A program made the translations under genes and the position numbers. From Thermoproteota archaeon (GTDB lineage: Archaea; Korarchaeota; Korarchaeia; Korarchaeales; Korarchaeaceae): 64,000 nt of DNA. The notes under the pieces are model-generated. The model was not told the DNA's origin and did not search any database. It saw nothing but the letters and a program-made list of their open reading frames with translations. Below are positions 4,501 to 39,740 of the stretch, piece by piece. How positions within the stretch are numbered: the first letter of the stretch is position 1; every line of letters begins with the position of its first letter. The DNA lies in the NCBI GenBank assembly GCA_026986575.1, contig JALSOH010000011.1, positions 1 through 64,000 on the forward strand, written 5' to 3'.

Positions 4501-5216
4501 TTGTACTTCGTCAGGAAGGAGGTCCTCTTCTTGGTGCTTTTCATCCCCCTCCTCCTGCTCTTCGCATTCCTCCTGAACGGCGCGGAGTTCACCTACGAGG
4601 CTGATGGGGAGAGCGGAGTGATGAGGCTGGATTCCCCGACCTCGCTCCTGCCCTTCTCCGCCCTCTTCGGAGGGGTGGCTGCTCTCACCCTAGAGGCTAT
4701 AGCCTACGCCGTGGGCGCGGTCCAGTCGCCCTCTAGGAGGCTCTACCCGGACATCCAACCCGTCAGCAGGGAGGAGCTGGTCTCTAGACTCATGGCCCTG
4801 AACGACCCGAACAAGCCGTGGGAGATAGTTGAGGAGGACGGGAACCTAGTAGCTAGGTGGAAGGTCGTGGATGCCAGGTGGTGGGAGATCCTGAAGAGGG
4901 CGGGGCTCAGGATCTACTACCTGGGGAGGATGAGGCTGGATGACGATAGGAGGATGGTCCTCTACGCGGAGGAGATGGGGGAGCTGGAGTGGGCCGCTGG
5001 CTTATCGGACGAACCCGTGAAGTTCAGGTACTCCAAGTTCAGGGGGAGGATCCTGTTCAGCAAGAGGAAGGCGGTAGCCTACGCCTTCAAGTCCCTCCTC
5101 CCCCTGACTGGGGTAAGGTTTACGAGTTCGACTTCGATGTGAACCTGATCAGGGGCCCCATAATAGAGACGGTAGAGAGAAGCGGGTGGCTCTTCCAGCC
5201 GGTGACGAGGCTCTGA
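4501..5216 (+). CDS. Hypothetical membrane protein, frameshifted near 5100
   Basis: Two N-terminal TM segments; ORF 4501..5142 continues in ORF 4989..5216 (…DWGKVYEFDFDVNLIRGP) after a C-run. Confidence 0.6.
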
Positions 5217-5388
5217 GGTGAGATGCTCCTCTCAACTGGTGAAATCCTCTCCGGTCAAACGCGCGGCACCATATGAAAATTTATTCATCATAAACATCTA
5301 AGTAACCGATAATTCCGGATCTGTAGACCGCCAACTCTTTCCTCACTCAGGGAGAGCTCTCCCTTTGGCAAAAGTCCATACGAGGAAG

Positions 5389-5955
5389 CTACTCGGTAGA
5401 ATCGATACCAGCAGCCTCCATTAGGACCTCCAGCTCCTCAAGGATGCCGAGCCTCTCCGCTAACTCCCTAGCGGATCTCCAGTTCACTTGAACGCGTCTG
5501 AATCTCTCGATAGTCACTGGTCTCACCCCCCTGAACGCCTCCAGAACTGCGTAGGCTTCGACAGTCAGCGACAGGAACGATATCCCCCATCTCTTGACCT
5601 CCACTATGTGACCCTCGAAGGTGGGGAGGGGATCCCCTAGGGGGGTAGTCGTGAATATCTCCACCGGAATGGGTCTCTCATCGGTCGGATAGTACAGTGT
5701 AAACACCCGGCCCCTCTCCGTCTTGAGGAGCTCAAGCCTCATCTTCTCCAGGCCAGTGGCCTCTCTGTAAGCCTCCTCTATGATGGAGAGGGTGATGTTA
5801 GGGGCGAGCAGATCTATGTCCTTGCTGGAGACGTCGATGCCCGCGACCACAGCCAGTATCTGAGATCCGTAGATCAGAGTGGGGGTTTTCTCACTGAGGG
5901 GTGGGTAGATGGAGAGGAGGACAGGCAGCCACTCATCCTCACTCCTGACGGTCAA
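5389..5955 (-). CDS. Nucleotidyltransferase-fold protein (AbiEii-like), probable TTG start at 5955
   Basis: LIYGSQIL…SKDIDLL motif; TTG start overlaps the TGA of the upstream gene. Confidence 0.6.
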   Translation of the reverse strand: MTVRSEDEWLPVLLSIYPPLSEKTPTLIYGSQILAVVAGIDVSSKDIDLLAPNITLSIIEEAYREATGLEKMRLELLKTERGRVFTLYYPTDERPIPVEIFTTTPLGDPLPTFEGHIVEVKRWGISFLSLTVEAYAVLEAFRGVRPVTIERFRRVQVNWRSARELAERLGILEELEVLMEAAGIDSTE

Positions 5956-6299
5956 GGTGAATCCTCCGCCCACAGGACGGGCACGGCATTGAACATTCTC
6001 CTGAGCAAGATCCTGTCGTCTATTGGTAGGATCCGCCTTCGAGGTTCGACTCCGAATTTGGAGAACTCCTCCCTCAGCTTCCCGCACGATGGTTTGGTTA
6101 TCCAGGACACTAGGTCCTCGCAGTGGTATGCCAGCCACACGAGATGGGAGAGGAAAAGGGTTCCCTCCCTGCCGAGCAGCTTCGGATCCGAGATGACACT
6201 TAGAGATGTTTCAGCCGCTACCTCTAGGGCCCAAACCTCGCCCCTGAGCCCCCTTCGGACGAGGTCCTCCCACTCCCTCTGATCCCTTATCCTGAACAT
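5952..6299 (-). CDS. Hypothetical protein, translationally coupled partner of the nucleotidyltransferase (possible antitoxin)
   Basis: Stop overlaps the start of the downstream NTase gene. Confidence 0.5.
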   Translation of the reverse strand: MFRIRDQREWEDLVRRGLRGEVWALEVAAETSLSVISDPKLLGREGTLFLSHLVWLAYHCEDLVSWITKPSCGKLREEFSKFGVEPRRRILPIDDRILLRRMFNAVPVLWAEDSP

Positions 6300-6333
6300 A
6301 TCTCATCTCTCCTGAGGGTGGGTACTTGAACTC

Positions 6334-7068
6334 TTACTTGATCGCGTGCACATAACGCTTGTGGTTGCCCGTCCTCGGCTTTATAACTTTCCTTTCCTCC
6401 ACACCATGCCGTGTATGATCGGGCTTCCGGAACTTGACCGTGTAATCCCAGAAGCTACCTGCTATGTCCTCTACTAGAAACCGGTCTCTCCTGAGTCTCA
6501 CTGTGGTCGACTTTAGGGCGTAATCTGGGTCTATGAGGAATTCGGTCACAGCTAATATGCCGCCCGGTTTGAGGACCCTGAAGACCTCCCTGAGCGCTCT
6601 CACTCTATCTGGTATCTCTTGCAGGACTGTAACCATGAGGCAGATATCCACAGATCCATCTGCCAGTGGCAGGTCATGAGCTGAGGCTAAAATTACGTCT
6701 ATAGTGTTCCGGACATCCGAATGTTGAGGGCTATCCAGTTTTCTTTTGAGTTCCTCCAAGAAGGCCGGATTTATGTCCATAGCTAGGACTTTACCTTCAC
6801 GACCTACGAATCGGGCTAGGGGGACTGTGAAGGTGCCAGCTCCGCATCCCAAATCCAGAGCGATCATTCCCTCCCTGACGCCTGACCTTATTACCACGTT
6901 CTCAGGAGGTTGAAGGGCTCTCCTGAATCGGCTGTCCAAGACCTTGGAGAAGATGGCCGGATCTATTACTTGCACCCTCCTCCTAAGGACCTTGGACAGG
7001 AACCTAACGATCAGCTGATAGGAGATAAATAGCACGAGAATCATTAACAGCATATGAAAAAGATCCAA
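6334..7068 (-). CDS. Class I SAM-dependent methyltransferase with N-terminal membrane anchor
   Basis: ALDLGCGAG motif I; VLKPGG; N-terminal hydrophobic helix. Confidence 0.9.
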   Translation of the reverse strand: MDLFHMLLMILVLFISYQLIVRFLSKVLRRRVQVIDPAIFSKVLDSRFRRALQPPENVVIRSGVREGMIALDLGCGAGTFTVPLARFVGREGKVLAMDINPAFLEELKRKLDSPQHSDVRNTIDVILASAHDLPLADGSVDICLMVTVLQEIPDRVRALREVFRVLKPGGILAVTEFLIDPDYALKSTTVRLRRDRFLVEDIAGSFWDYTVKFRKPDHTRHGVEERKVIKPRTGNHKRYVHAIK

Positions 7069-7447
7069 TTCATTCCCCCAAAGATTTGAACGGTATGATC
7101 AGTAATTAGCAGCTATCTGGATCTCCCTAGCTATTAAATCTTATTCGAGGCTCCCCCCTCTATTACCTTATAAGAGCTCCTATCCTGCCAAGTAGCGAGG
7201 GATAGCGCCATTGCGCTATAAGTTCCATTGCACCTTGAAGTAATGTCTTCTCCGGCCGAATTAACCATTTTCTTTGCTGCCTTTTAACCAGAGAGATCAC
7301 CGCCGCTTCCGGGGGTAGGTGTAGTTTGTTACCCGCTACTTCTTCCCGGTTACATCTTCCAGATACATCACGCAGCGAGGCAATTTATCCGAAGTAGGGC
7401 TAACTGCTATGCTTGCATCGGGTGCTAGTTAGCTCCCTGCCTAGTGA

Positions 7448-7467
7448 CTGTAATACTTATATTACAG
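7448..7467 (+). promoter_or_regulatory. Perfect 8-bp inverted repeat over a TATA-like element upstream of vapB (putative autoregulatory operator)
   Basis: CTGTAATA-CTTA-TATTACAG, with further TATTACA/ATTACA half-sites before the ATG at 7490. Confidence 0.6.
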
Positions 7468-7489
7468 CAGTAGTATTACATTACATGAG

Positions 7490-7738
7490 ATGTCCGTGGT
7501 CGTGAGCTTCAGGATAGATAGGGAGCTCAAGAGGAAGATGGACCAGCTTAAACACATAAACTGGAGCGAGGTAGTCAGGAGGGCCATAGCGGAGACTATA
7601 AGGAGGGAAGAGGAGAGAAGACGCAGTAAGGACTTAACGAAGGTGAGGAAGGCTGCCCTCAGGTCGGAGATCATATCAAGAGAGGTGAAGGGCTGGAGCT
7701 CGGTGGAGGAGATAAGGAAGTGGAGAGAGTCGTCGTAG
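7490..7738 (+). CDS. vapB: VapB antitoxin (RHH)
   Basis: MSVVVSFRID…INWSEVVRRAI…EEIRKWR. Confidence 0.9.
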   Translation: MSVVVSFRIDRELKRKMDQLKHINWSEVVRRAIAETIRREEERRRSKDLTKVRKAALRSEIISREVKGWSSVEEIRKWRESS

Positions 7739-8136
7739 ACGCCTCGGTCGTGGTCAAGTGGTTCGTTGAGGAGGAGTACAGTGAGGAAGCTAGGCTGCTG
7801 AAGGACGCTTACTCCTCGGGGGTTTTCGACATAGCCGCTCCAAGTCTCCTCCACTACGAGGTATTGAACGCCCTGAAGTACTCTGGTGCCTTCGGGGAGG
7901 ACGAGCTGAAGAAAGTCGCATCTATACTGGAGGATTTTCAGATCACCCTGTTCGAGCTCTCAGGGGAGCTGGCCAGCAAGACCGTTGAACTGGCCATGAG
8001 AAAGGGGATAACTGTTTACGACGCCTCATATGCTGCTTTAGCTGAGATGCTAGGCAGTGTAGGCTACACAGCCGACGAAAAGCTCCTGAAGAAGGTAGGC
8101 GGTCGGTTGAGACATGTAAAAGATGTGAAGGTATAG
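7720..8136 (+). CDS. vapC: VapC/PIN toxin
   Basis: VVVDASVVVKWF…ITVYDASY…YTADEKL. Confidence 0.92.
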   Translation: MERVVVDASVVVKWFVEEEYSEEARLLKDAYSSGVFDIAAPSLLHYEVLNALKYSGAFGEDELKKVASILEDFQITLFELSGELASKTVELAMRKGITVYDASYAALAEMLGSVGYTADEKLLKKVGGRLRHVKDVKV

Positions 8137-8521: not shown

Positions 8522-9595
8522 TTAAGGGGGAACTAAGCATAAGTTCCCATCCCTATACACCGCCACCCTGTCCTCAACCCAGCCTCCCAAGAGCCCCCTG
8601 ACGGTGATCAGTCCATTTCCAGCAATACCGGTCATCCCTCCCTGAATTGAGAAGGCGAGTCTGCTCGCGTCGGGACTCCACTGCAGGTTGTAGGGTCTCC
8701 CGTCCAGCCGGAAGATCTGCCCGTCCATGTAGATCGACCAGCTGCCGTTGACCTGAATGGCGGCACCGACTCCCCTCTCACAATTCAGCTCGACCACGCT
8801 CCCATTCACCAGCTTCTTCAAGGATCCGTCGTAGACGTAGAGGCCCCCCGCCCCTCCTAGGTACAGCTTTCCCTTCCTCCAGCAGCCCACAGATGCCGCA
8901 GAGGGTATCTCGCTCTCCCTGCCTTGAGCGTCCATAACCACAACCTTATCACCCAAGGAGATCGCCGCTGCCTCCGCAACGTCGAGCACCCTGCCCTCCA
9001 TGGTCCTCTTCAGGACGGGACCGCCCATCCCGATTAGCTCGATCCACGATGAGCTGCCGTTTCCCAGAGCTACGAGCACGAACCTGCCGAGCCAATCCAT
9101 GTAGGTGGCATAGCCCCCCAGCTCGACCTTCCAAGGGAGCTGAAGCGTGGCCACCTCTCCCTTAGGCGTTATGATCCTGGTTACGACCGCTAGCCTTCCG
9201 TCGTCGCTCCATTTGATGAACTGGACCTCTCCATTGAATTTCATCTTATCCAGGACCGAGCCATCCTCCCCCACAACCACTAAAGCCCCGGAATCCGTGC
9301 CTATCGCGACCCTATCCTTCCACCACGAGGAATAGGTGGCCTTGCCGGGGAGTTCCATCTTCCAAGCTATCGAGCCGTCCGGTCGAAGGGCGTACGTGTC
9401 AACTCCAGGGGAATCCGTGTTCACAACCAAGAGGGAGCCTGTAGCAAAGAGTACGGGCTTCCCCTTTAGCTTGAGACACTTCTCCGTCTTGACGGGATTG
9501 GGTATCGGCCCTATTTCCGGTCCGAGCCTAGAGATGACCGCGTAGGCAACCAAGATCAGCAGCACGAAGATCAGGAGCTTGGTCCTCGTAGACAT
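8522..9595 (-). CDS. Membrane-anchored beta-propeller (WD40/PQQ-like) protein; probable start 9595
   Basis: MSTRTKLLIFVLLILVAY signal anchor; repeated W-S-x-D-G blades; TGATG overlap with the upstream ORF. Confidence 0.65.
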   Translation of the reverse strand: MSTRTKLLIFVLLILVAYAVISRLGPEIGPIPNPVKTEKCLKLKGKPVLFATGSLLVVNTDSPGVDTYALRPDGSIAWKMELPGKATYSSWWKDRVAIGTDSGALVVVGEDGSVLDKMKFNGEVQFIKWSDDGRLAVVTRIITPKGEVATLQLPWKVELGGYATYMDWLGRFVLVALGNGSSSWIELIGMGGPVLKRTMEGRVLDVAEAAAISLGDKVVVMDAQGRESEIPSAASVGCWRKGKLYLGGAGGLYVYDGSLKKLVNGSVVELNCERGVGAAIQVNGSWSIYMDGQIFRLDGRPYNLQWSPDASRLAFSIQGGMTGIAGNGLITVRGLLGGWVEDRVAVYRDGNLCLVPP

Positions 9596-10110
9596 CACAG
9601 CGCACCCTTGGGAGGTCTCGGTCCCCTTCCCCTCCTGCCCCTGAAGGGCCTGGCTGAGTATATCTTGGTGAGGACCGCCTGATAAACGTGAGGCGCCTCC
9701 CACTCGTACATCAGGCAGTTGCCGTGCTTCCACACCCAGTACTCGGCATCCAGATAGTAGGATCCAGTGGGGAGGAATGGAAGGTCGCTGTACTTCCTGA
9801 AGGGCTCTCCCTCCGAGTCAAGGGACGTGCTCAAACCGCAACCCTCGTCCGGGCACGCACAGCCGCAGACCACCACGAGCCCGGGCACCCAGCTCCCGTA
9901 CCTCCAGCATTCTCTGGGAAGCTCGATCGGGAGCCTCACCCATCCCTCTATATGTATGTCGCAGTTCTCTTCGTCGCTTAACCACTTCCTGCAGCCGCTA
10001 TCCTCCTCGAAGTCGTTGCACAGGTGGGCGAAGTACCTCACCCTTTCCCCGTACCAGAAGACCCTCCCCCTCCCGCTGAGCCTGAAGTTATCGCAGTCCA
10101 TCACAAGCAT
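9595..10110 (-). CDS. Cys/Trp-rich hypothetical protein
   Basis: 171 aa with many Cys including CGCACPDEGC; coupled to the beta-propeller gene. Confidence 0.55.
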   Translation of the reverse strand: MLVMDCDNFRLSGRGRVFWYGERVRYFAHLCNDFEEDSGCRKWLSDEENCDIHIEGWVRLPIELPRECWRYGSWVPGLVVVCGCACPDEGCGLSTSLDSEGEPFRKYSDLPFLPTGSYYLDAEYWVWKHGNCLMYEWEAPHVYQAVLTKIYSARPFRGRRGRGPRPPKGAL

Positions 10111-29929: not shown

Positions 29930-30099
29930 CCCCTTTATTGGATCCTTAGCTTTTTAGTCATTCGTAAGAGGGATCGCAATCCCTGGTGATTGATATCGCG
30001 CCGATGAACCCCATGATTCCAAGGCCTGACCGATGGAGTACAGACCCTGCGAGGCTAGATGGAGCTTCTTTTAAATCACCCTTGGAATCATCGAGATGG

Positions 30100-30912
30100 A
30101 TGGAGATTGGAACGATCGCCCCAGCGGTGCTGGCGGTGAGCCTTACTGCTCTCCCTACCTCGTTGAGACAGCCCCCTCTCTTGGTCTACTACAGGAGAGG
30201 AGGTATCTCCGGATTAATCGAGAACTTGATCGTTTACTCGGATAGTACTGGGATCTACAGGAGGGATGGTGAGGAGATCAGAGGCAGGGTGGATGGGGAC
30301 ACGGTATCCGCCTTGGAAATGATCCTTAACTTGGTCTCCAAGCGGGGCTTCTCCGAGGTGAGCCCAAGGCTGGGAGCTGTGGATTTCCTCCACCACGAGG
30401 TGATATATCCGAGAAGGGGTGAGAGGTTCGCTTGGGTGGATGAATGGGCCTCTGAGGTGGAGCTGCCTAGTGAGATAAGGGCTCTTACCAAGCTCCTGGA
30501 CCATATCATCTCCATAGTTAGAGGAGTTGAGTGGGTGAACTGGGAGGAGAGCTCCACCGCCTATCTGAGGATGAGGGCCTCTTTGGACGGGCTGGTGGTG
30601 AGGGATGGTGCTACCCTACTGCTGAAGGTGTCGATAGCGTGCTTAGGAGAGGTTGAGATCTCCTACACCCTCCCGACACCTGACTCACCCGATGTGAAGG
30701 TCGGATCCGACGCAAGGATATTGGTGAACTTCTTGAAGGTTGAGGGACGTGTTATCGATGGAGGGAGGAGGAAACTGATCCCAAGGAGGAAACTCGAGAT
30801 CGAAGCATCTGTGAAGCTGAATGATGTGGGAAAAGGTCTCTACTGGTTGAGCGTTCACTTCCCTCCGAGGACCCCGAGCATCGAGGTATCTCTACCACTC
30901 GTGGTCGTGTGA
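30100..30912 (+). CDS. Exported hypothetical protein; N-terminal region resembles emfourin-type protease inhibitor
   Basis: Signal-like N-terminus; YRRGGISG…AVDFLHHEV…LPSEIRAL. Confidence 0.45.
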   Translation: MEIGTIAPAVLAVSLTALPTSLRQPPLLVYYRRGGISGLIENLIVYSDSTGIYRRDGEEIRGRVDGDTVSALEMILNLVSKRGFSEVSPRLGAVDFLHHEVIYPRRGERFAWVDEWASEVELPSEIRALTKLLDHIISIVRGVEWVNWEESSTAYLRMRASLDGLVVRDGATLLLKVSIACLGEVEISYTLPTPDSPDVKVGSDARILVNFLKVEGRVIDGGRRKLIPRRKLEIEASVKLNDVGKGLYWLSVHFPPRTPSIEVSLPLVVV

Positions 30913-31365
30913 GCCAATGTTCCCATCCAGCTCGCATCTAATTACTCTTCCCTAGTAGGGATCGGATCAGAGAAAACCCTACAGAGTGAATGGGAACTAT
31001 AAGAAATAAAGGTTGTGGGAACCCCGACCAGACCTGTGGATCTTATCAAAGATCCCCACGATTCAGCTGATCAGGAACACTAGGGTCAGGAGGATCAAGT
31101 AATATACAAAGTAGAGCTCAAAGGAGACCTCATTCTCAGCTATGCTCCCAAGCAGCTCCAAAGATGGGCAGTGGAACGAACTGATCAGGAGGAAGAGCAT
31201 GCAGGACAGATCTTCCATTTATATTGGAAGGGATCTTCAGGGAAAGAAATGTTCTTGCATAAATCCTTGATATAGCTTCTTCGTAATGAGTAATTTTAGA
31301 AAATAATTATAGAAAAAAAGTTCATAAATTTAAAAATAATTACATATACGCGAAAATGGATACCT

Positions 31366-32076
31366 ATGAGGCCATTCAATCGAGGATGGATTTTGATATA
31401 TGGAATATCCAATGTAGTGGTAGTTGCTTTATTTTTCCTACATTTCATCCTATTCCTGTTGGAAGGACTCCCATCTATTGAGCCTAGAACGGTGCTACCG
31501 CTGCTGATCTTCTCGGTATTGACTTCCTACATACTCCATGAACTCTCTCATTATGTGGCAGGCAGAGCCTTGAATCTCCAGCCTAAGATAGGGGTAGGGG
31601 GAGGAAGGGGAATTTTCAAGAGGTTTCTATACGTGAAGATATGTGATAGTGCTGCATCGAGGACTAGAGCCTCGATTGCCGCCTTGATGGGCCCATCCGC
31701 GAATGCTCTCGCCGTGATAGTAAGCGGATACCTATCCCGATACAACAGTACCGCTCTAATCTTCGGCATTGCTAACTTCCTAGTGCTCACCTCCACGGTT
31801 CTAGTCAGAGGACCTACTTCCGACTACAATGCCGCATTTCTGCCTACCCTGGTTAAGAAGACCTCAGGGAAGATCAGAGCCATCACCATGAATAAGGTGA
31901 AGATCGATACAGTACTGAGCAATGCGATATTCCTATTAGTTGCGATCTCTCCACTCACCAGAGGACTCGAGTACGTTTGGGTGTCCCTAGTACTGTTTCT
32001 GGCGATTATACTATCTACACCTCTCTATGGTCTGACGGCGAGCGTGATAGGTAAGTTGTTGCTCCCTAGGCGGTGA
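31366..32076 (+). CDS. M50 (site-2 protease)-family intramembrane metalloprotease
   Basis: ILHELSH (HExxH) in a TM context; ALMGPSAN; GPTSDYN. Confidence 0.8.
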   Translation: MRPFNRGWILIYGISNVVVVALFFLHFILFLLEGLPSIEPRTVLPLLIFSVLTSYILHELSHYVAGRALNLQPKIGVGGGRGIFKRFLYVKICDSAASRTRASIAALMGPSANALAVIVSGYLSRYNSTALIFGIANFLVLTSTVLVRGPTSDYNAAFLPTLVKKTSGKIRAITMNKVKIDTVLSNAIFLLVAISPLTRGLEYVWVSLVLFLAIILSTPLYGLTASVIGKLLLPRR

Positions 32077-32142
32077 GGTGAAGAACGCCCCATCTATGCA
32101 TAGATTATTCGTGGATCAAGGGTGGGGTCGTCAATGTCTAGT

Positions 32143-32158
32143 CACTTTTTATATTTTT
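32143..32158 (+). promoter_or_regulatory. TATA-box-like element for regulator/precursor transcript
   Basis: CACTTTTTATATTTTT about 30-45 nt upstream of GTG 32189. Confidence 0.5.
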
Positions 32159-32188
32159 GGTCTGTGTTCAGCACTTCGGGTAGTTGAA

Positions 32189-32662
32189 GTGTTCGAGAGG
32201 AAAAGAAGAAGCGAATTAGACATTATAGCAGATATACTAGGCATTCTATCAGAAAAAACGCAGTCCATAACAAAAATAATGTACAAAGCGAACCTTTCAT
32301 ATAATCTCACCAAGTACTATGTGGATAGATTATTATCTTTAGGCTTAATAGAAAAAATAGAAAGAGAATATTGTATTACAGATAAGGGTATCAAATTTTT
32401 AATAATATACTCATTTATAAAATCTGTAATTGGAGAGAAGGTAGAATTTAATTCTAGAATTATACACAGTAACAATATTTCTGAAATTTTAAAGCTTAAA
32501 GAATACCTTGAGTTGCTAAGTGGCAGAGGTCTTGGGGAGGTGAGTCCGTTGGTGGAAAAGGGAACTAGTAAAAGGATAGAGGAGCTGAAGGAGTTAAAAG
32601 AAGTTATCCCCGAGGAGCTCCCTGGATGTGGGCTCTGGGCCTGCGGGACAAGTGAGAGATGA
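32189..32662 (+). CDS. Archaeal winged-helix regulator (HTH_45/ArnR-like), reading in frame into the putative precursor peptide
   Basis: RKRRSELDIIADIL…TKIMYKANLSY…YVDRLLSLGLI…YCITDKG; probable GTG start 32189. Confidence 0.8.
   Translation: MFERKRRSELDIIADILGILSEKTQSITKIMYKANLSYNLTKYYVDRLLSLGLIEKIEREYCITDKGIKFLIIYSFIKSVIGEKVEFNSRIIHSNNISEILKLKEYLELLSGRGLGEVSPLVEKGTSKRIEELKELKEVIPEELPGCGLWACGTSER
32549..32662 (+). CDS. Putative RiPP precursor peptide, 37 aa: MVEKGTSKRIEELKELKEVIPEELPGCGLWACGTSER
   Basis: Strong SD GGGGAGGTGA (32534-32543) 5 nt before TTG 32549 (alternative GTG 32552); acidic/charged leader-like part then Cys/Trp core; directly upstream of a radical SAM/SPASM gene. Confidence 0.7.
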   Translation: MVEKGTSKRIEELKELKEVIPEELPGCGLWACGTSER

Positions 32663-32665
32663 GTG

Positions 32666-32712
32666 AGGGATGTCTCCCTACGATCTCTACCTCAATCTAT
32701 TATCTTTCTTCC
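32666..32712 (+). terminator. Stem-loop plus pyrimidine-rich tract after the precursor
   Basis: AGGGA-TGTC-TCCCT hairpin followed by TATTATCTTTCTT. Confidence 0.4.
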
Positions 32713-32783
32713 ATTTAGATTATGCTTTCATAATTAAATTTTATGTATTGAATTATTAAGGTAGTTGAGATAGGGGTGAATTT

Positions 32784-34019
32784 ATGATAGAGAGCGAGAG
32801 ATCTCTGACCGCTTTTGAGCGGACAAGTAGTACCGTCTTAATAAAGAAAGTAGTGTTTGTAATTACTTACTTGTGTAACATGAGGTGTACATATTGTTAT
32901 TATGGGAATGAAAATCTAAATATATTATCAAATAAGGCGATATTAGGAAAAACAGTTATGAGCTGTGAAGTAGTTGAAAAAAGTTTACACCTCTTCGAGA
33001 ACATGGGACTGCTCGCTAGGGATGTGCTGTATTTCCATATCTTCGGTGGAGAGCCCTCCATGTTCCCCGAAATAATCTACTGCATACACAAGAAAGTCAA
33101 TCAATTAACAAAATCTAGGAAAATTGCTCTTTCTATTTCTACAAACGGGTATTATTTCAGTAAAAAATTCCTAGAGGTTCTGGGTAAAATAGAGAATGTG
33201 GAAGTAACTGTGAGCATAGATGGACCTCAGGTGGTACACGACAACCAAAGAAAGGATATTCTTGGCAATCCTACCTTTGACAGAATCGTTAGTAATGTAA
33301 AAAAACTAGTCAAAATGAGGGTTAATAATAAAATTAGAAGGATAGTGGCTGAAGTAACAGTAACCAAGCATACCCTCGAGTCCGGCCTCCTTCGTACCGT
33401 AGAATTCCTCAGAAATCTCGGCTTCGATGACGTGGTACTCCATGTTGTTGAAGGAGTTAATGAATTGAAACCAGATGTCTCGATGTACTTTAGGAACAAG
33501 ATAGAACTACTGAAAGTTGAGCTGGAGAGGTTACTTTCAAGTGAACCGCCACTCTATTCAGGGACGGTGTCTCTCATCAGAGCGGTCCTCAATCCCAGCA
33601 TCAGACAGTGCGACGCTGGGAGGAGCTTAGTGGCTGTTACACCCGAGGGTGATATATACCCTTGTCAAGGCTTCGTCGGACTAGAGGAGTTCAGGATAGG
33701 TAACCTGGAAGATTTGAATAGTCGCGAAGAGTTCTTGAGAAATGTCCAGAGAGTTTTGAGGAGGATGGGTAACAAACTCATGGATCCTCGGTGCGCCGGC
33801 TGCGCTTTCGTGAGAGAATGCCCAAAGATATGCTTGGCATCAAACGTTTTAGATGGGAGGGATCCCTACCAGTTTAGCGATGAGTATTGCGATGTGATAC
33901 GAAAAGAGGTAGAAATAATTCATGGATTTTTAAAGAGACTTTCTAATAATGTTGGGGAACGGAGGAAGGTCGTGGAAGGCATGAGGAGGTGGGCCTCTGG
34001 TGGTGGCAGTAGTCTGTAG
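32784..34019 (+). CDS. Radical SAM/SPASM-domain peptide maturase
   Basis: CNMRCTYC (CxxxCxxC); FGGEP, STNG, VSIDGP; SPASM CDAG…GDIYPC…CAGC…C…C…YC. Confidence 0.92.
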   Translation: MIESERSLTAFERTSSTVLIKKVVFVITYLCNMRCTYCYYGNENLNILSNKAILGKTVMSCEVVEKSLHLFENMGLLARDVLYFHIFGGEPSMFPEIIYCIHKKVNQLTKSRKIALSISTNGYYFSKKFLEVLGKIENVEVTVSIDGPQVVHDNQRKDILGNPTFDRIVSNVKKLVKMRVNNKIRRIVAEVTVTKHTLESGLLRTVEFLRNLGFDDVVLHVVEGVNELKPDVSMYFRNKIELLKVELERLLSSEPPLYSGTVSLIRAVLNPSIRQCDAGRSLVAVTPEGDIYPCQGFVGLEEFRIGNLEDLNSREEFLRNVQRVLRRMGNKLMDPRCAGCAFVRECPKICLASNVLDGRDPYQFSDEYCDVIRKEVEIIHGFLKRLSNNVGERRKVVEGMRRWASGGGSSL

Positions 34020-34911
34020 AAATTTAACCAAGATCTACAGTAATGGAGTTGTGGCGAACGATTCAATCAATCTAACAGTAAGAAAGGGGATAATCTTCAC
34101 TATTCTAGGACCGAACGGAGCTGGTAAAACAACCTTACTCCGCCAGATCTACACCGAACTCCTACCGACGAGCGGAGAGATCGAGGTCTTCTCGATAAAT
34201 GTCGTTGAGAATCCTATGGAAGTGAGGAAGCTCATAGGGGTCGTGCCTCAGGCTGGTCTCCCCATACCAGAGCTCAGGGTAGAAGAGCACATTAGGTACT
34301 TCTCCCAACTCAGAGGGGTGGAGGATGTAAATTCGGCGGTCTCTTACGCCCTAGAGACTATGGATCTAGAAGATTACAGGGACAGACTGGTTATGGAGCT
34401 CTCCGGAGGATTAAAGCAAAGAGTGCTAGTGGCCACTGCCATAGCCACGAAGCCCAAACTACTGATACTCGATGAACCCACTGTAGGCATGGATCCAATC
34501 ACCAGAAGGAGGTTTTGGAGGAAGATGGAGGAGCTTAGGGGGGAAGGAAGAACGATCCTGCTCACTACCCATTACGTGGATGAGGCAGAGACCGTGTCTG
34601 ATGAAGTAGCTATTCTCAATAAAGGAAAGATAGTCCACAAAGGCAGACCGGCGGATTTCAAGTCGCTCCTGAAGCTCAAAGCTTATGTCATCGTGAAGGG
34701 GAGGAACATAGATCCTTCCATCTTCGTGAATTACGGGAAGATCGTTTACTTCGATGACTACACTCTCAAGCTCGGACTGGAGGAGATAGACTTCGACCTC
34801 CTTAAGGAAATCAGGGATTCCATTCTCAAAAGAGGATTCGTCTTCACGTTCAAGGAGGCTTCACTCGAAGATGCTTATGTCCAGCTGGTGGGAGGTGACC
34901 TGATTGGTTAA
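34000..34911 (+). CDS. ABC-2 exporter ATP-binding subunit
   Basis: GPNGAGKT, LSGG, LILDEPT, TTH. Confidence 0.95.
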   Translation: MVAVVCRNLTKIYSNGVVANDSINLTVRKGIIFTILGPNGAGKTTLLRQIYTELLPTSGEIEVFSINVVENPMEVRKLIGVVPQAGLPIPELRVEEHIRYFSQLRGVEDVNSAVSYALETMDLEDYRDRLVMELSGGLKQRVLVATAIATKPKLLILDEPTVGMDPITRRRFWRKMEELRGEGRTILLTTHYVDEAETVSDEVAILNKGKIVHKGRPADFKSLLKLKAYVIVKGRNIDPSIFVNYGKIVYFDDYTLKLGLEEIDFDLLKEIRDSILKRGFVFTFKEASLEDAYVQLVGGDLIG

Positions 34912-35641
34912 GCTCCTCAGGGACACCTTAGTGATTGTAAAGATAAGGTCAAGCTGGATAAGAAATCAGCCCACCCTCTACTTGGGAACTTCATTTTTCA
35001 TACCGATCGTCCTGTCGCTTCTGTTCTGGATGATGGGCATGGAGATGACTGAGAGAATACTCTTGGGATCCATGGTCTACTCGCTAGTGTATCCCGCTGT
35101 AGCAACTGTTGGCAAAAGTGTTGCTTATGATAAGATAAAGGGTTCCTTCACCCTCTTTTCTACCTCTCCCATCTCCCCCTATGCCTATATATTGGGTACC
35201 GCCCTGTCAACTTTGCCCTCAAGCCTCATACCTTTCCTCATGTTCATGCTTGCATCGACCCTGATCTTCGGACTGAATCTAACGGTGATATCTTTTATAC
35301 TCTCTTTAATGATCCTAGTTTTTGGTGCCCTCTCTCTCAGCTTCCTAGGGTTCTCATTGGGCTTTAGGCTAAGAGATCCCAGGAGCTCAGATGTCATAGT
35401 AGATATGATCTGGGCCTTGATGATATTCCTCTCTCCGGTCTATATACCTTGGTCACGGATACCTGAAATTGTAAGACCTGTCTCCCTCGCGATGCCGACC
35501 ACTTACTTGGCGGAATTACTAAATTTGGTGCTATGGGGTAGAACATTCCTCAGCACTTCAGTCCTAGTTGGAGCCAACGTGGCGTTTTTCTCATTCTTCG
35601 CAATGATCGCCCTCCGTTATGGTAAGATGAGGGAGAGCTGA
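34904..35641 (+). CDS. ABC-2 exporter permease
   Basis: About six TMs; FLSPVYIP…MPTTY; GGAGGTGA SD. Confidence 0.9.
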   Translation: MVKLLRDTLVIVKIRSSWIRNQPTLYLGTSFFIPIVLSLLFWMMGMEMTERILLGSMVYSLVYPAVATVGKSVAYDKIKGSFTLFSTSPISPYAYILGTALSTLPSSLIPFLMFMLASTLIFGLNLTVISFILSLMILVFGALSLSFLGFSLGFRLRDPRSSDVIVDMIWALMIFLSPVYIPWSRIPEIVRPVSLAMPTTYLAELLNLVLWGRTFLSTSVLVGANVAFFSFFAMIALRYGKMRES

Positions 35642-35643
35642 CT

Positions 35644-36663
35644 ATGATTCGGATTCACGGTACTAAAAGATACGCCAAAGAAACTAGGCGGATTCTAGGG
35701 AGAAGACTAGAGAGAGTAATAGGGAGGTTCACTGGAATAAGTGAGATCCTCATACCTCCGAGTATCGGTAAGATTGGGAGGAGCAGCCTCTTCTCAAGGT
35801 TATCACCATTACTATCGCGCTCAAACTTAAAATCCCGAGCGTTGAACACATCTAGGCTTTTTTACTGTATAGGTGAAGCTTTCTCCAAGTTACTTGGCAT
35901 GGATGAATCTCTGGTTAGGTTAAGTGGTGAAATCTCCGCTAGCTTAGCAGCTAAGAATCTGCTAGTGGACTGGATTGCGGATGAATCAGGTAAGAGTGAG
36001 GTTTTAGACATATTGGTAGAGGGCATGGAGTGGGAGGAGAGCCTGAGGATCATCTCAAACGATATGCTAGGGAACATATTAGGGACTATAATAACTATTA
36101 GGAGGTTAATTAAATCAAGAAATGAATTTTACGCTCGAATATTTACAAACAAAGCTATTAAATCTATCAAATATTTCAAAATATCTAGCAGGTGCTCCCC
36201 CTCAAGTGAGCACCTCTCGCCTGAATGGATATTAGACAAAGCCCGGCTTCCCATTGAAGAGATATTTGCGGCGATAGCTGGTCTATCCGCGGATCTGGGA
36301 TACAGAAACTACTTATCGATAAATGATAAGTTAAGGTATGGTTTCTCTATCTTCGCCGTCATAGATGATTTGGCCGATCTCCCTAAAGACATCCTTAGAG
36401 GTCAATGTAACTATGTCATCTATTACCTCTATGATAACGGTGTATTGAGGTTTTACAAAGGAAGAGGAAGAGGTCCTAGCGATGAGGAACTGGAGATCGC
36501 CTTCAATAAGGAGTTCGTTGAAATAATTTCCTGGCTATTGGATTACTATCTAGATATTTACACCGATATGGTCCGTAAACTATTCGAATTTGATAGATCG
36601 ATCAGAAACTACTTCAACTATATACTCTATTTGGAGATGATTAACTCCTTGGGGAAGCTATGA
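35644..36663 (+). CDS. Class I isoprenoid-synthase-fold protein (possible peptide prenyltransferase, ComQ-like)
   Basis: Degenerate first Asp motif LVDWIADE and second motif AVIDDLADLPKDILRGQCNY; helical-looking sequence. Confidence 0.55.
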   Translation: MIRIHGTKRYAKETRRILGRRLERVIGRFTGISEILIPPSIGKIGRSSLFSRLSPLLSRSNLKSRALNTSRLFYCIGEAFSKLLGMDESLVRLSGEISASLAAKNLLVDWIADESGKSEVLDILVEGMEWEESLRIISNDMLGNILGTIITIRRLIKSRNEFYARIFTNKAIKSIKYFKISSRCSPSSEHLSPEWILDKARLPIEEIFAAIAGLSADLGYRNYLSINDKLRYGFSIFAVIDDLADLPKDILRGQCNYVIYYLYDNGVLRFYKGRGRGPSDEELEIAFNKEFVEIISWLLDYYLDIYTDMVRKLFEFDRSIRNYFNYILYLEMINSLGKL

Positions 36664-36684
36664 TACTGGTTTCTCAGAAATCCG

Positions 36685-36815
36685 ATGAGTGATGACAGGA
36701 GGAAGAGGATGCTAGAGGACCTGAGGAAGCTGAGGAGGGAGGAGGAGAGGATGAAGAGGTTGGAGGGAAGATAGGTGAACGGAAGGAGTTACGCGGTTGA
36801 TGCGAGCGTTCTCTG
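36685..36815 (+). pseudogene. Truncated vapBC-like remnant at the island's right border
   Basis: MSDDRRKRMLEDLRKLRREEERMKRLEG followed by YAVDASVL (PIN start), then breaks off. Confidence 0.45.
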
Positions 36816-36943
36816 TGCACGACTCCTCTAGCTAAATTCCCCACAATCTCCCTCTCTCTATTGTCGTCGAGGGCTATGCTCTCCTCTTTATCGACTCAAT
36901 CGATTGGAAGACTCACATATCGCGCAATGCAGATCCAGCCCCA

Positions 36944-38806
36944 ATGTTTTTTATGATGCTCTCAGAAGGAAATGGTAAAGTAGGGCTGTTGATTTGGATG
37001 TTTTATAAATCTCTCCTTCTGGCTTTCATAGTTCTCGCCATGTTTATTCAGCCCCTCGCCATTAAGGCGGACCCTCAGAACTCGACCTTTACAGGCCCAC
37101 CCCCACTGCCTGAAAACCCTGGCACATTGACGGGCGTACCTCCAGACAAGTGTAGTTCCCAGAACCTTGATAACATCTACGACTCATATCAGAAGGCTGA
37201 AGAGATGTCCTCACAGTACCCCTGTTACAAGTACTTGGCGGAGCACTATCACTACAAGTATCTCCGGCTCAAGTGCCTGTGCCAAGGGGGTTGCGATAAG
37301 GAGGCCGTAGCCTCATACTACCAAAAGGAAAACGCTTATTATGAGAAGTTTCACACGCTCTTCGAAAATGGCAAGTGCGGACAGATTACGGCTCCGCCCA
37401 CAGACGTAGTAACCACAACAGAGGGGGCTTCCACTCCTGGAAATAACTCCGATCCTCAGCTCATCTCAACTTGGGTTTTCCCTAGGGAGGGAACGGGAAA
37501 CCAGGTCTATAATTATTCTGTAAGCCTCACCGACCCAGATAATGATCCTGTGATGGTTCAGCTCTGCATACACGTCCTAGACGCTGGATGGCAGTGCTTC
37601 GACGCCCTTCAGGTAATGGGAGAGGGAACTGCCAGCTGGAACATGACATTCGTGAACGCCACTCCTGGGACTTATGAGTACAGGATTTACTATGACGATG
37701 GGAATAACAGGGGGGCTTGGGGTCCCTACGGTGGGCCTGTAGTGAAGGCCAGTTTGGTAAACCCAAATGGGAGTAAGTTTGGAGCAGATGAAAGTAATCC
37801 TGCTACAGAGGGAAATGAATCCAGTACGAATAACTCCGATGATGTCACTGGAGCGGTTATAGTCGGGGTATCCGCGGCAGCAGGTGTTGCAATTGCCAAG
37901 AAGGCTAAGGGAAGGAGGAAAAACAAGGAGGAGAGGGGAGATGAGAAATCCTCCCTTGACCAGTTCACGCAATCCGTGGAGGATGCCAACAAGTGGGCCG
38001 GAAAGACGAAGCCCGTGACGGACGTAGTGAGCCAGGCTGGCGCCTATTCCTCAGAGAAGGGGCTGGATAAGGGAATTAGAATGGGTGCAGATAGTTGGAA
38101 GAACGCTGAGAGGAAGAGAATAGTGAAAAAGTTCAGGGAATTCAGGAATGGAAAGAGCGTGAGGCAAAGCGTGTTAAGGGGAGGGGGTAAGGACGGAGGA
38201 GGTTTCTGGGACCCAAAGAAGTATAAGAAGCTCAAGAGACTAGGTAGAAGGGCAGTTAACCTTCCCAAGAAATACAAGACTATTAAGAACTTAGCTAATA
38301 AGGTCAGAAGTGCCTCAAAATTCGCCTCGAAGTACATCGGGGCGGCCTCCATAGGCCTTTCCACATATGACGGGGTGAAGAGCTACAACAAATACATCGA
38401 TGAGAATAAGGACTTCGTGAAGGACCATCCGATCATGGGAAGGGCCCTAGGAGCCATGAAGGCCTTTGGCGAACAGGTCATAATATACACCGTGACCAAG
38501 AACCCGGTCATAGGTCTCCCAGATGCCGTGATAGGGTACGCGACCAACGGCAGGGTGTCCGTGGCCAGGGCGATTCAGGATACGGAGGACTTCGTTAGCA
38601 AGGGGATAAGATCCATGGCAGATGCCTACTACGGCAACCAGTACTCGGACTGGAGCGAGGGATATGCCAATCACTCCTCGATAAAGAAGCACCTTTCCAT
38701 GCTGAACGATCCCGACTATGTAAGAAAGCTGAAGGCTAGGGGTTGGACCGACGAGAGGATAGCGAGGGTGAGGAAGAGCATGGAGGAGGCCCTAGGGATG
38801 AGGTGA
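36944..38806 (+). CDS. Large exported/membrane protein: Cys-rich N-domain, Ig-like domain, TM, basic helical C-terminal region
   Basis: Signal peptide; six Cys; DPDNDP Ig-like motif; hydrophobic GAVIVGVSAAAGVAIA then a K-rich region. Confidence 0.7.
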   Translation: MFFMMLSEGNGKVGLLIWMFYKSLLLAFIVLAMFIQPLAIKADPQNSTFTGPPPLPENPGTLTGVPPDKCSSQNLDNIYDSYQKAEEMSSQYPCYKYLAEHYHYKYLRLKCLCQGGCDKEAVASYYQKENAYYEKFHTLFENGKCGQITAPPTDVVTTTEGASTPGNNSDPQLISTWVFPREGTGNQVYNYSVSLTDPDNDPVMVQLCIHVLDAGWQCFDALQVMGEGTASWNMTFVNATPGTYEYRIYYDDGNNRGAWGPYGGPVVKASLVNPNGSKFGADESNPATEGNESSTNNSDDVTGAVIVGVSAAAGVAIAKKAKGRRKNKEERGDEKSSLDQFTQSVEDANKWAGKTKPVTDVVSQAGAYSSEKGLDKGIRMGADSWKNAERKRIVKKFREFRNGKSVRQSVLRGGGKDGGGFWDPKKYKKLKRLGRRAVNLPKKYKTIKNLANKVRSASKFASKYIGAASIGLSTYDGVKSYNKYIDENKDFVKDHPIMGRALGAMKAFGEQVIIYTVTKNPVIGLPDAVIGYATNGRVSVARAIQDTEDFVSKGIRSMADAYYGNQYSDWSEGYANHSSIKKHLSMLNDPDYVRKLKARGWTDERIARVRKSMEEALGMR

Positions 38807-38810
38807 TCCG

Positions 38811-39740
38811 ATGAGACTCACGAATGAAGAGTTGGCGGCTGCCTTCGCCGCTTTGAATGAGAGCCCTTGGCTCCTCCTCTCCGTGTGGGGGTCCTTCCGG
38901 AGGGCGAGGGAGGGGGTCGAGGGCCTCTCCAGCAGAGGGCTGATCAGTGAAGGAAGGCTCGAGGAGGTTGCAAGCCTCATAAGGACCTTATCAAAACCGA
39001 AGCTGATGGCTGATGTCTTCACCGTAGACTTCGAGGGTGGAACCATGAGCAGGGAGTCCTATGTAGCAGGAGAGGGGACTTTCCTTCTCAGGATAGGGAA
39101 CGAGTTCATCTGGGCTGAAAGATCGGAGCTCAACCTCCTTGACCGCCCCACCTCCGTCATGAGGCCAATCCTCTTGGATGGAAGGGAGCTAATGGTCCTC
39201 TTCCTCATACTTACCATGGACATATACAGCTACGATGTTCCCGGTCTGGCGCCATTCACCGCAGACGATGTGCAGAAAAGGGTTGAGGTGGGATCTCACA
39301 TCCCCCTGAACGCCCAGATAATCCTGATAGGTGGTAAGAGAGCCCCGAAACTCAAGGTGAAGGACGTGAAAAAGGTGCTCAGATCCCTCGTCGAGAAGGG
39401 AGTGCTCATATCCCACGGGAATTCCCTCTCCATATCTGAGGAGTTCCTCCCGGCGGCCCTTGCCCTAGGCTCCCCCGACAGGATCAGGATAATATCGATC
39501 ACAGCGGACCCCGAGTCAGATGACCCCGACCTGAGGACGATCGCCATATACGAGCTGGGAAGCTCCTCGGTGGCCATGGACATCTTGGACGGGGGGAAGG
39601 GAATCGTGGTGATAGGAGGCCCCCTAAGCGATATCCCTGGCTATGCAGGGGAGGTTCACGGGAAGATCTGCCCGAATTGCGGTCATGTGAACAGGGGAGA
39701 TGCCAAATTCTGCATAAAATGCGGAACGAGACTGGCGTGA
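38811..39740 (+). CDS. Hypothetical protein with C-terminal double zinc ribbon
   Basis: CPNCG…AKFCIKCG; GAGGTGA SD; 4 nt after the previous gene. Confidence 0.75.
   Translation: MRLTNEELAAAFAALNESPWLLLSVWGSFRRAREGVEGLSSRGLISEGRLEEVASLIRTLSKPKLMADVFTVDFEGGTMSRESYVAGEGTFLLRIGNEFIWAERSELNLLDRPTSVMRPILLDGRELMVLFLILTMDIYSYDVPGLAPFTADDVQKRVEVGSHIPLNAQIILIGGKRAPKLKVKDVKKVLRSLVEKGVLISHGNSLSISEEFLPAALALGSPDRIRIISITADPESDDPDLRTIAIYELGSSSVAMDILDGGKGIVVIGGPLSDIPGYAGEVHGKICPNCGHVNRGDAKFCIKCGTRLA

Follow-up and report, generated by a model that had tools for sequence, protein, structure and literature searches.

Prenylation of ribosomal peptides by enzymes of the isoprenoid-synthase fold is described, according to a 2026 review, for only a few bacterial families, ComQ, PalQ and ChrPC (PMC13290415). 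ComQ has this fold and prenylates an internal Trp of a ribosomal peptide, PalQ acts on a terminal Trp in a Mg2+/Mn2+-dependent manner and carries the acidic pairs D89/D93 and D200/D204, and the P domain of ChrPC also prenylates Trp in a ribosomal peptide (PMC10853753; PMC13290415). According to the same review, ComQ, PalQ, ChrPC-P and Ord1 share a Gln just upstream of the second acidic motif, which serves as a Trp-recognition determinant (PMC13290415). In terpene cyclases, according to a further review, helix D carries DDXXD and helix H carries (N,D)DXX(S,T)XXXE, and for epi-isozizaene synthase D99 is named and the diphosphate contacts are given as R194, K247, R338 and Y339 (PMC10992375). We analysed a 64,000-nucleotide (nt) stretch of DNA from a Thermoproteota archaeon of the Korarchaeaceae (contig JALSOH010000011.1, positions 1 to 64,000; hereafter the window), in which a sequence-only reading had proposed that the gene at 35644-36663 (hereafter the target) may encode a ComQ-like tryptophan prenyltransferase paired with a radical SAM maturase. 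The target protein is best described as the founding member of a tiny, undescribed three-member family within the class I terpenoid-synthase alpha-fold, and its gene lies in a cluster with a radical SAM/SPASM maturase and a predicted Cys-Trp-Cys precursor peptide. The target gene and its two acidic motifs are as follows.

35644..36663, + strand: class I terpenoid-synthase-fold protein of 339 amino acids (aa), predicted soluble, from the open reading frame (ORF), motifs and fold models
35968-35985, + strand: first acidic motif, D109-W-I-A-D113-E114 (DWIADE), residues 109-114, from translation and alignment
36364-36414, + strand: second acidic motif, DDLADLPKDILRGQCNY, D241-D-L-A-D245-L-P-K-D249...G253..N256-Y257, residues 241-257, from direct translation

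A word-indexed search of 5.8 billion proteins passed two proteins among 2,724 candidates, namely the target itself and P0002 (346 aa, 38% identity, E 1.1e-59), while phmmer, run exhaustively over 1.84 billion cluster representatives, gave three proteins with E no higher than 0.001, which were the target, P0002 and, in addition, P0003 (377 aa, 32% identity, E 1.5e-6). A search with the three-member profile gave no further members (3 of 7,999 candidates), and among 61 related genomes the family occurred in that of the window (1/61) and in 0/60 of the others. Motif-seeded scans of 185,579 GTDB species genomes (380 stretches) and of IMG/VR (237 stretches) returned no family relative, and 537 stretches from the JGI metagenomes yielded one, at a locus termed L002. 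Because the family has three members among billions of proteins, it is missed by homology-based genome mining.

The three-sequence family alignment (30-41% identity) has 54 invariant columns, and D109, D113, E114, D241, D242, L243, A244, D245, D249, G253, N256 and Y257 are invariant in three of the three members. D109, D113 and E114 are the sole invariant acidic residues within positions 24-240 of this alignment, and D241-D242-L-A-D245-x-x-x-D249-x-x-x-G253-x-x-N256-Y257 is the most conserved block of the family. The DDLADLPKD…G..NY motif of the sequence-only reading, and the degenerate upstream motif that it gave as VDWIAD (target residues 108-113), are thus real, both by translation and by their invariance. 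DDLADLPKD fits the DDxxD of a second Asp-rich motif (SARM) and also the (N,D)Dxx(S,T)xxxE of cyclases, Asp here taking the place of Ser/Thr and of Glu, and DWIADE keeps the i/i+4 acidic pair of DDxxD, not its second Asp. The two motifs are 132 residues apart, and the corresponding spacing in the polyprenyl synthases of the same genome is about 130 by a by-eye estimate.

AlphaFold2 (AF2) modelling of the target from the three-sequence alignment gave an all-helical model with a mean predicted local distance difference test score (pLDDT) of 74.5 and a predicted template modelling score (pTM) of 0.77, in which D109-E114 ends the long helix 88-113 and D241-D249 ends helix 220-244 and continues into helix 246-251. 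D109/D113/E114 may be equivalent to the helix-D DDxxD site, the first Asp-rich motif (FARM). When the PDB was searched with Foldseek, 46 of 46 among the matches listed were class I terpene synthases or prenyl-diphosphate synthases (probability 1.00, best E 8.7e-4, TM-score about 0.4-0.55). VIA-align against 48,161 representative chains likewise gave a best 50 entries that all have the class I terpenoid-synthase fold, headed by selinadiene synthase 4okm_A (Z 17.6, root-mean-square deviation 4.1, 280 aligned residues), with epi-isozizaene synthase 3kb9_A at Z 17.4 (282 aligned residues), the glutamate N-prenyltransferase DabA at Z 16.0 and, lower down, trans-prenyl synthases (Z about 14-15.4). 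The ESM Atlas held its own model of the target (pTM 0.81), and its language-model features placed the protein nearest to the cluster 'Class 1 isoprenoid biosynthesis enzyme' (0.95, 197/256 features); the nearest structures there were ent-kaurene synthase (TM-score 0.65), DUF2600 (0.63) and SQS_PSY, squalene/phytoene synthase (0.57), with a DUF2600 feature score of 0.89. With AF2, Foldseek, VIA-align and the ESM Atlas in agreement, the class I isoprenoid-synthase fold (IPR008949 superfamily) suggested in the sequence-only reading is well supported at the level of predicted structure.

Within this fold, the models place the target slightly nearer to bacterial terpene cyclases than to trans-prenyl synthases. 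The 4OKM and 3KB9 cyclases resemble it in carrying acidic motifs about 130-140 residues apart on long helices. In contrast to them, however, the target has 9-10% identity, has no Pfam Terpene_syn_C_2 match, has DxxxDE rather than DDxxD and Asp in place of the Ser/Thr and Glu ligands, and is found in the context of a cassette for a peptide made by the ribosome and then modified post-translationally (RiPP) rather than in a terpene pathway. DabA (6VKZ) is a terpene-cyclase fold that transfers a prenyl group to an amino-acid nucleophile, and is matched at Z 16.0 over 282 residues; it differs in having 10% identity to the target and a free amino acid as substrate, in an algal toxin pathway, rather than a ribosomal peptide. 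These likenesses bear on the possibility that the target works as a true terpene synthase or cyclase of class I, which would make a free terpene (or a cyclised prenyl group), leave the peptide untouched and owe its place in the cluster to co-regulation or to a second product. The top structural neighbours are indeed bacterial cyclases (Z 17.6-16, against about 14-15.4 for trans-prenyl synthases), DUF2600, the curcumene-synthase family, is near both by structure and by features, and the (N,D)Dxx(S,T)xxxE form, assigned to helix H of cyclases in the cited review, is also that of the second motif (PMC10992375). Z gaps of 1-3 among class I enzymes, however, do not resolve subfamilies, the canonical DDxxD is missing, and DabA is itself a cyclase-like fold acting as a prenyltransferase. 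Moreover, the family gene abuts a radical SAM gene (L002, 4 nt) or an exporter (window, 2 nt) and occurs with a peptide in two of two loci, and we regard a terpene synthase as quite unlikely.

The conserved block of the second motif was also followed beyond the family. A lone DDxxD may arise by chance. The longer pattern DDLADxxxDxxxGxxNY, sought as an exact match at the DNA level across 596 Gb of GTDB genomes, gave six loci. At two of them the pattern coincides with the second Asp-rich motif of PF00348 polyprenyl synthases (E 1.7e-40 and 4.8e-39), and at a third with the second Asp-rich site of a DUF2600 protein (PF10776, 175 bits). Two more encode Bacteroidota proteins of about 350 aa that are unclassified and carry two Asp-rich motifs each, and the last, a phage tail terminator, was a chance match. 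Five of the six thus lie in proteins that are, or resemble, class I isoprenoid enzymes, and they show, on sequence grounds, that the block behaves as a signature of such enzymes. A radical SAM gene was found beside none of the five pattern loci examined (L008 left out), and because none of these adjoins such a gene, they are not cassette relatives. Alignment of the target with the pattern-scan proteins by hhalign gave 27-85% probability, for proteins that were selected by motif and whose first motifs were not aligned reliably, and these values accordingly carry little weight. Tetraprenyl-beta-curcumene synthase and its family DUF2600 (PF10776), the second-best structural neighbour in the ESM Atlas, are similar to the target in that the member at L006 has a DYLD...DE-like first motif together with the exact DDLADxxxDxxxGxxNY. 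The target nevertheless has no PF10776 match and a different genomic context, and its hhalign probability to the L006 protein, which was chosen by motif, is 41%.

The two Bacteroidota proteins (L005:5719-6861(-) and L010:5698-6759(-)), of ~350 aa and from two metagenome-assembled genomes, belong to no Pfam family and have the Asp-rich motifs DDLFD/DDLMD and DDFAD/DDLAD...NY. Each adjoins a Ser/Thr-kinase-TPR gene of about 820-840 aa, and they may represent a further class I isoprenoid-fold family, likewise undescribed, whose conserved partner is a kinase.

Genomic context tied the family to a maturase and a peptide at two loci. In the window, the parts concerned are the following.

32784..34019, + strand: radical SAM/SPASM peptide maturase without an N-terminal RiPP recognition element (RRE) domain (Radical_SAM E 8.8e-15, SPASM E 2e-4)
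32549..32662, + strand: predicted 37-aa precursor, lying in frame within the 3' end of a helix-turn-helix (HTH) ORF, from translation
32624..32644, + strand: core motif GCGLWAC, from six-frame translation

The second locus, L002, is a 13.9-kb metagenome contig that carries P0003 (7995-9128), and on it a radical SAM/SPASM gene (6818-7990) ends 4 nt ahead of P0003. Its product shares 34% identity over 389 aa with the radical SAM protein of the window (E 7e-69), so that the pairing with a radical SAM maturase claimed in the sequence-only reading recurs with a homologous enzyme. Both proteins hold CX3CX2C, starting at residue 31 in the window and at residue 15 in L002, and the full seven-Cys SPASM motif. 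Upstream of the L002 radical SAM gene, a short ORF with an ATG at 6589 preceded by a Shine-Dalgarno sequence encodes 51 aa including GCGIWVC, and the same 51-aa gene had been called by JGI (P0004). The precursors are located 74-121 nt upstream of the radical SAM genes at both loci, the GCGLWAC of the window lying 120 nt 5' of its maturase gene. When the 1,911,475-bp genome is translated in six frames, GCG[LI]W[AV]C has a single occurrence, at 32624; L002 likewise has one (6679), and 145 kb of other loci have 0. The 37-aa peptide and the 51-aa L002 peptide share I10, P21, E22, G26, C27, G28, W30 and C32, of which G26, C27, G28, W30 and C32 are the invariant core residues; the single core Trp of the sequence-only reading is accordingly an invariant residue between two invariant Cys at both loci. 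A two-peptide profile search recovered, among three candidates, only the L002 peptide. Because a homologous radical SAM protein, a peptide of the same core and a homologous enzyme occur at both loci, the three-part set of GCG[L/I]W[A/V]C peptide, radical SAM/SPASM protein and predicted class I-fold enzyme is a conserved cassette.

In the window, genes for an ABC-2 exporter, a winged-helix protein and a zincin-like membrane protein are added to the cassette. Counterparts of the transporter, HTH and zincin-like genes were absent from L002, and beyond the cassette the window and L002 have no matched gene family in common. In L002 a tyrosine integrase gene (9135-10067; archaeal phage integrase model, E 6.5e-9) directly follows the cassette, and a metallo-beta-lactamase-fold gene (4958-6310) lies 5' of it, which suggests that the L002 cassette is carried on an integrative element.

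With two loci with context, and with the window gene following transporter genes rather than the radical SAM gene, it could be argued that the target is an unrelated passenger of the island, such as a factor that confers immunity to an exported peptide or is membrane-associated, and that its adjacency is coincidental. Such a role is, in our view, very unlikely, as the sole detectable distant homologue in 1.84 billion representatives is again found beside a homologous radical SAM gene and a peptide of the same core, and the target is soluble, with no transmembrane segment.

The maturase itself raises a different possibility. The best NCBIfam model for the window protein is the PapB ranthipeptide maturase (150.7 bits, below the cut-off of 340), the next models are other thioether-forming maturases, and the protein has the motifs CNMRCTYC at residue 31, C276x17C294 and CAGCAFVRECPKIC at 337. 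As its alignment to SCIFF-type maturase models begins only at model position 91, it is taken to be without an N-terminal peptide-recognition domain. Another protein may then present the peptide, and the target could be a non-prenylating partner of the RRE-less maturase, either a leader-peptide scaffold or chaperone or an enzyme of some other peptide chemistry, a role with which its degenerate first acidic motif would agree. Six acidic positions, however, with the expected spacing of 132 residues, are invariant across 30-41% identity, an invariance that is predicted by a metal/diphosphate site and is not needed in a scaffold, and we hold such a partner role to be unlikely. Complex prediction for the enzyme with the 37-aa peptide gave a score of 0.03 against a mark of 0.32, a result that weighs neither way.

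We propose, by analogy with the described enzymes and with about even chances of being right, that the target is a Mg2+-dependent prenyltransferase acting on the cross-linked or linear core peptide, with Trp30 as the favoured acceptor. In this proposal, D109xxxD113E114 and D241DxxD245xxxD249 would bind Mg2+ and a prenyl diphosphate supplied by the polyprenyl synthases of the host, two of which (PF00348) are present in the genome as a potential donor supply. Ionisation of the diphosphate would give an allylic cation for capture by the core peptide, the likeliest acceptor being the indole of the invariant Trp, as in ComQ, PalQ and ChrPC, with a Cys thiol as the alternative. The radical SAM/SPASM protein would install one or two cross-links from the flanking Cys residues, and the product would be trimmed and then exported. 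We infer metal and prenyl-diphosphate binding, the role of the peptide as acceptor, the modified residue and the order of the steps. The wider proposal, that an RRE-less radical SAM/SPASM protein and a terpene-cyclase-like enzyme act on CG[L/I]W[A/V]C to give a thioether-bridged, Trp-(or Cys-)prenylated peptide, defining a new RiPP class of this vent archaeon and an uncultured relative, the first prenylated ribosomal peptide in archaea and the third independently evolved lineage of isoprenoid-fold peptide prenyltransferases, is put forward tentatively and with some doubt.

Several observations weigh against a peptide prenyltransferase. The first motif is degenerate (DxxxDE), and the placement of both motifs at metal sites is putative. 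The five AF2 models, built on three sequences, span pLDDT 37.7-74.5, and the model of P0003 (pLDDT 40.4, pTM 0.39) was kept out of the fold search. In VIA-align, helical models reach Z about 13-14 without true kinship, although the Z values of the target exceed this range, refer to alignments over most of its length and all point to one fold. The target matched 0 Pfam-A and 0 NCBIfam models at E up to 1. A whole-protein sequence search of the PDB gave a sole match to the unrelated 2ywx_A (E 0.57), and searches of the PDB with the family profile and with a 35-aa segment around motif 2 gave 0 matches each; across Pfam, NCBIfam and the PDB, no sequence-level tie to a characterised prenyltransferase or terpene synthase was found. 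The hhalign probability against the two polyprenyl synthases of the genome was 0.2-1.1%. The Gln that precedes the second motif in the described enzymes is missing, Ile or Leu taking its place in three of three family members, and genomic context is known for two of the three. Lastly, the published trans-IDS-like peptide prenyltransferases, which resemble trans-isoprenyl diphosphate synthases, have, in the accounts consulted, no radical SAM partner (PMC10853753; PMC13290415).

Set against the described peptide prenyltransferases, the target shares the isoprenoid-synthase fold, solubility and a length of about 300-340 aa with ComQ (IPR033965), PalQ and ChrPC-P, and as with them its gene adjoins that of a ribosomal precursor peptide whose conserved Trp is near the C-terminus; as in PalQ (D89/D93 and D200/D204), there are two acidic motifs with i/i+4 Asp pairs. 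It differs from ComQ, PalQ and ChrPC-P in having no detectable sequence similarity, in lacking the Gln, in its extended second motif DDxxDxxxDxxxGxxNY, in its archaeal host, in its radical SAM/SPASM partner and in the Cys-Trp-Cys core. The residues that precede D241 give FAVIDD, FALLDD and SAILDD in the three members, while the canonical polyprenyl synthases of the genome have FQIQDD and YQIKDD at this position. No member family of IPR008949 (PF00348, PF00494, PF03936, PF19086, PF10776) was matched by the target. Thus the fold, the pairing and the conserved Trp of the sequence-only reading stood, while membership of the ComQ/PalQ family did not: neither PF00348 nor another model matched, hhalign probabilities were about 1% or less, the Gln was missing and the nearest structures were cyclases. 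The target would resemble ComQ and PalQ in its proposed action, and is not, as far as its sequence goes, a member of the ComQ/PalQ group; it is probably a peptide prenyltransferase with an origin independent of both.

In our literature searches, no RiPP cassette of a radical SAM/SPASM protein and a class I terpenoid-fold enzyme was described in archaea. Should the target prenylate the Cys-Trp-Cys peptide, it would add a prenyltransferase lineage that is unrecognisable by sequence, extend peptide prenylation to archaea and combine it with radical SAM cross-linking, all in a compact three-gene cassette that might offer a lipidation tool of thermophile-grade stability. The peptide-signalling circuit that the sequence-only reading had envisaged is no better supported than an exported antimicrobial, because the cluster has no receptor gene.

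Two other affiliations of the target were considered. By Kyte-Doolittle hydropathy it has a grand average (GRAVY) of -0.05 and a maximum of 1.17 over 19-residue windows, and hence no transmembrane segment, by which a UbiA-type reading of DDxxDxxxD was ruled out. Kinship with squalene/phytoene synthases was entertained on a structural TM-score of 0.57, yet no PF00494 match was obtained.

The cluster in the window comprises six + strand genes in an operon structure, with intergenic gaps of -20 to +121 nt, and the target ORF starts 2 nt past the stop codon of the ABC-2 permease gene. Its remaining features are listed here.

31366..32076, + strand: putative membrane zincin-like protein with a HELSH motif, candidate leader peptidase, from weak Pfam matches and translation
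32078..32662, + strand: winged-helix protein of the HTH_45/Sso10a family (HTH_45 E 5.4e-22, residues 43-114)
32536..32543, + strand: Shine-Dalgarno-like GGAGGTGA inside the HTH ORF, 5 nt before the in-frame TTG at 32549
34000..34911, + strand: ABC transporter ATPase, DrrA-like (ABC_tran E 2.2e-30; TIGR01188 drrA 205.5 bits, below cut-off)
34904..35641, + strand: ABC-2 type permease (ABC2_membrane E 3.9e-16)

The matches of the zincin-like protein were below cut-off (DUF3267, E 7.9e-4, 20.2 bits against 27.1; Peptidase_M50, E 0.039), and the winged-helix ORF scored 81.4 bits with NCBIfam Sso10a_fam (cut-off 60). This ORF ends ...EELPGCGLWACGTSER, and no stop codon separates its winged-helix domain from the peptide. 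The start of the permease gene has the same arrangement as that proposed for the precursor, GGAGGTGA followed by 5 nt and TTG (34891/34904). The octamer GGAGGTGA is six-fold over-represented in the genome (358 copies, 58 expected), and for 126 of these a start codon follows within 3-9 nt; the archaeon relies heavily on Shine-Dalgarno-led initiation. The 37-aa precursor is therefore predicted to be translated separately from the internal TTG. An HTH-peptide fusion product is the alternative to a separate precursor and would, if real, be unusual.

In this hydrothermal-vent archaeon, the cluster forms an insert of low GC within a variable hotspot. Its 5.3 kb have a GC content of 0.436 against 0.529 for the genome, and a congener, G011, has conserved counterparts of the genes on its upstream flank (29986-30912, 66% protein identity) and on its downstream flank (36944-39740, 87-90%). 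Between these flanks the congener carries a NAD-epimerase-like gene, an unknown gene and a PIN/MazE toxin-antitoxin pair (L024, G011:C57, 3117-7415), and because it holds different cargo between conserved flanks, the interval 30912-36944 of the window is placed in a variable hotspot. At both GC transitions the cluster is bracketed by an imperfect 17-nt direct repeat (31186-31202 and 36696-36712, 5,510 nt apart; 16/17 identical). By a rough estimate ~0.1 such pairs would occur by chance per 8 kb, and the repeat could be the remnant of an insertion.

Among contigs from public runs, X1, possibly the origin of the present DNA, holds the cluster in one piece and X2 in near-identical pieces, while runs X3 and X4, the latter from a different study than X1 and X2, hold identical pieces of 151-433 nt that include the precursor region 32512-32662 and the part 36041-36473 of the target. 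One X2 contig joins 31232 to 36460, skipping 5,227 nt, with a shorter side of only 34 nt, and gives a weak hint of a co-occurring cluster-less variant that keeps about the last 68 codons of the target.

The genome's small-subunit ribosomal RNA matches the archaeal model end to end (1399.8 bits), a model that also matches bacteria, so that the match is no proof by itself. The window also encodes a DUF432 protein, and Sso10a and DUF432 are archaeal families. Downstream of the cluster, at 36944-38806, lies a gene for a 620-aa protein with an N-terminal hydrophobic segment, a Lys-rich C-terminal half and no Pfam match, which is 87% identical in the congener.

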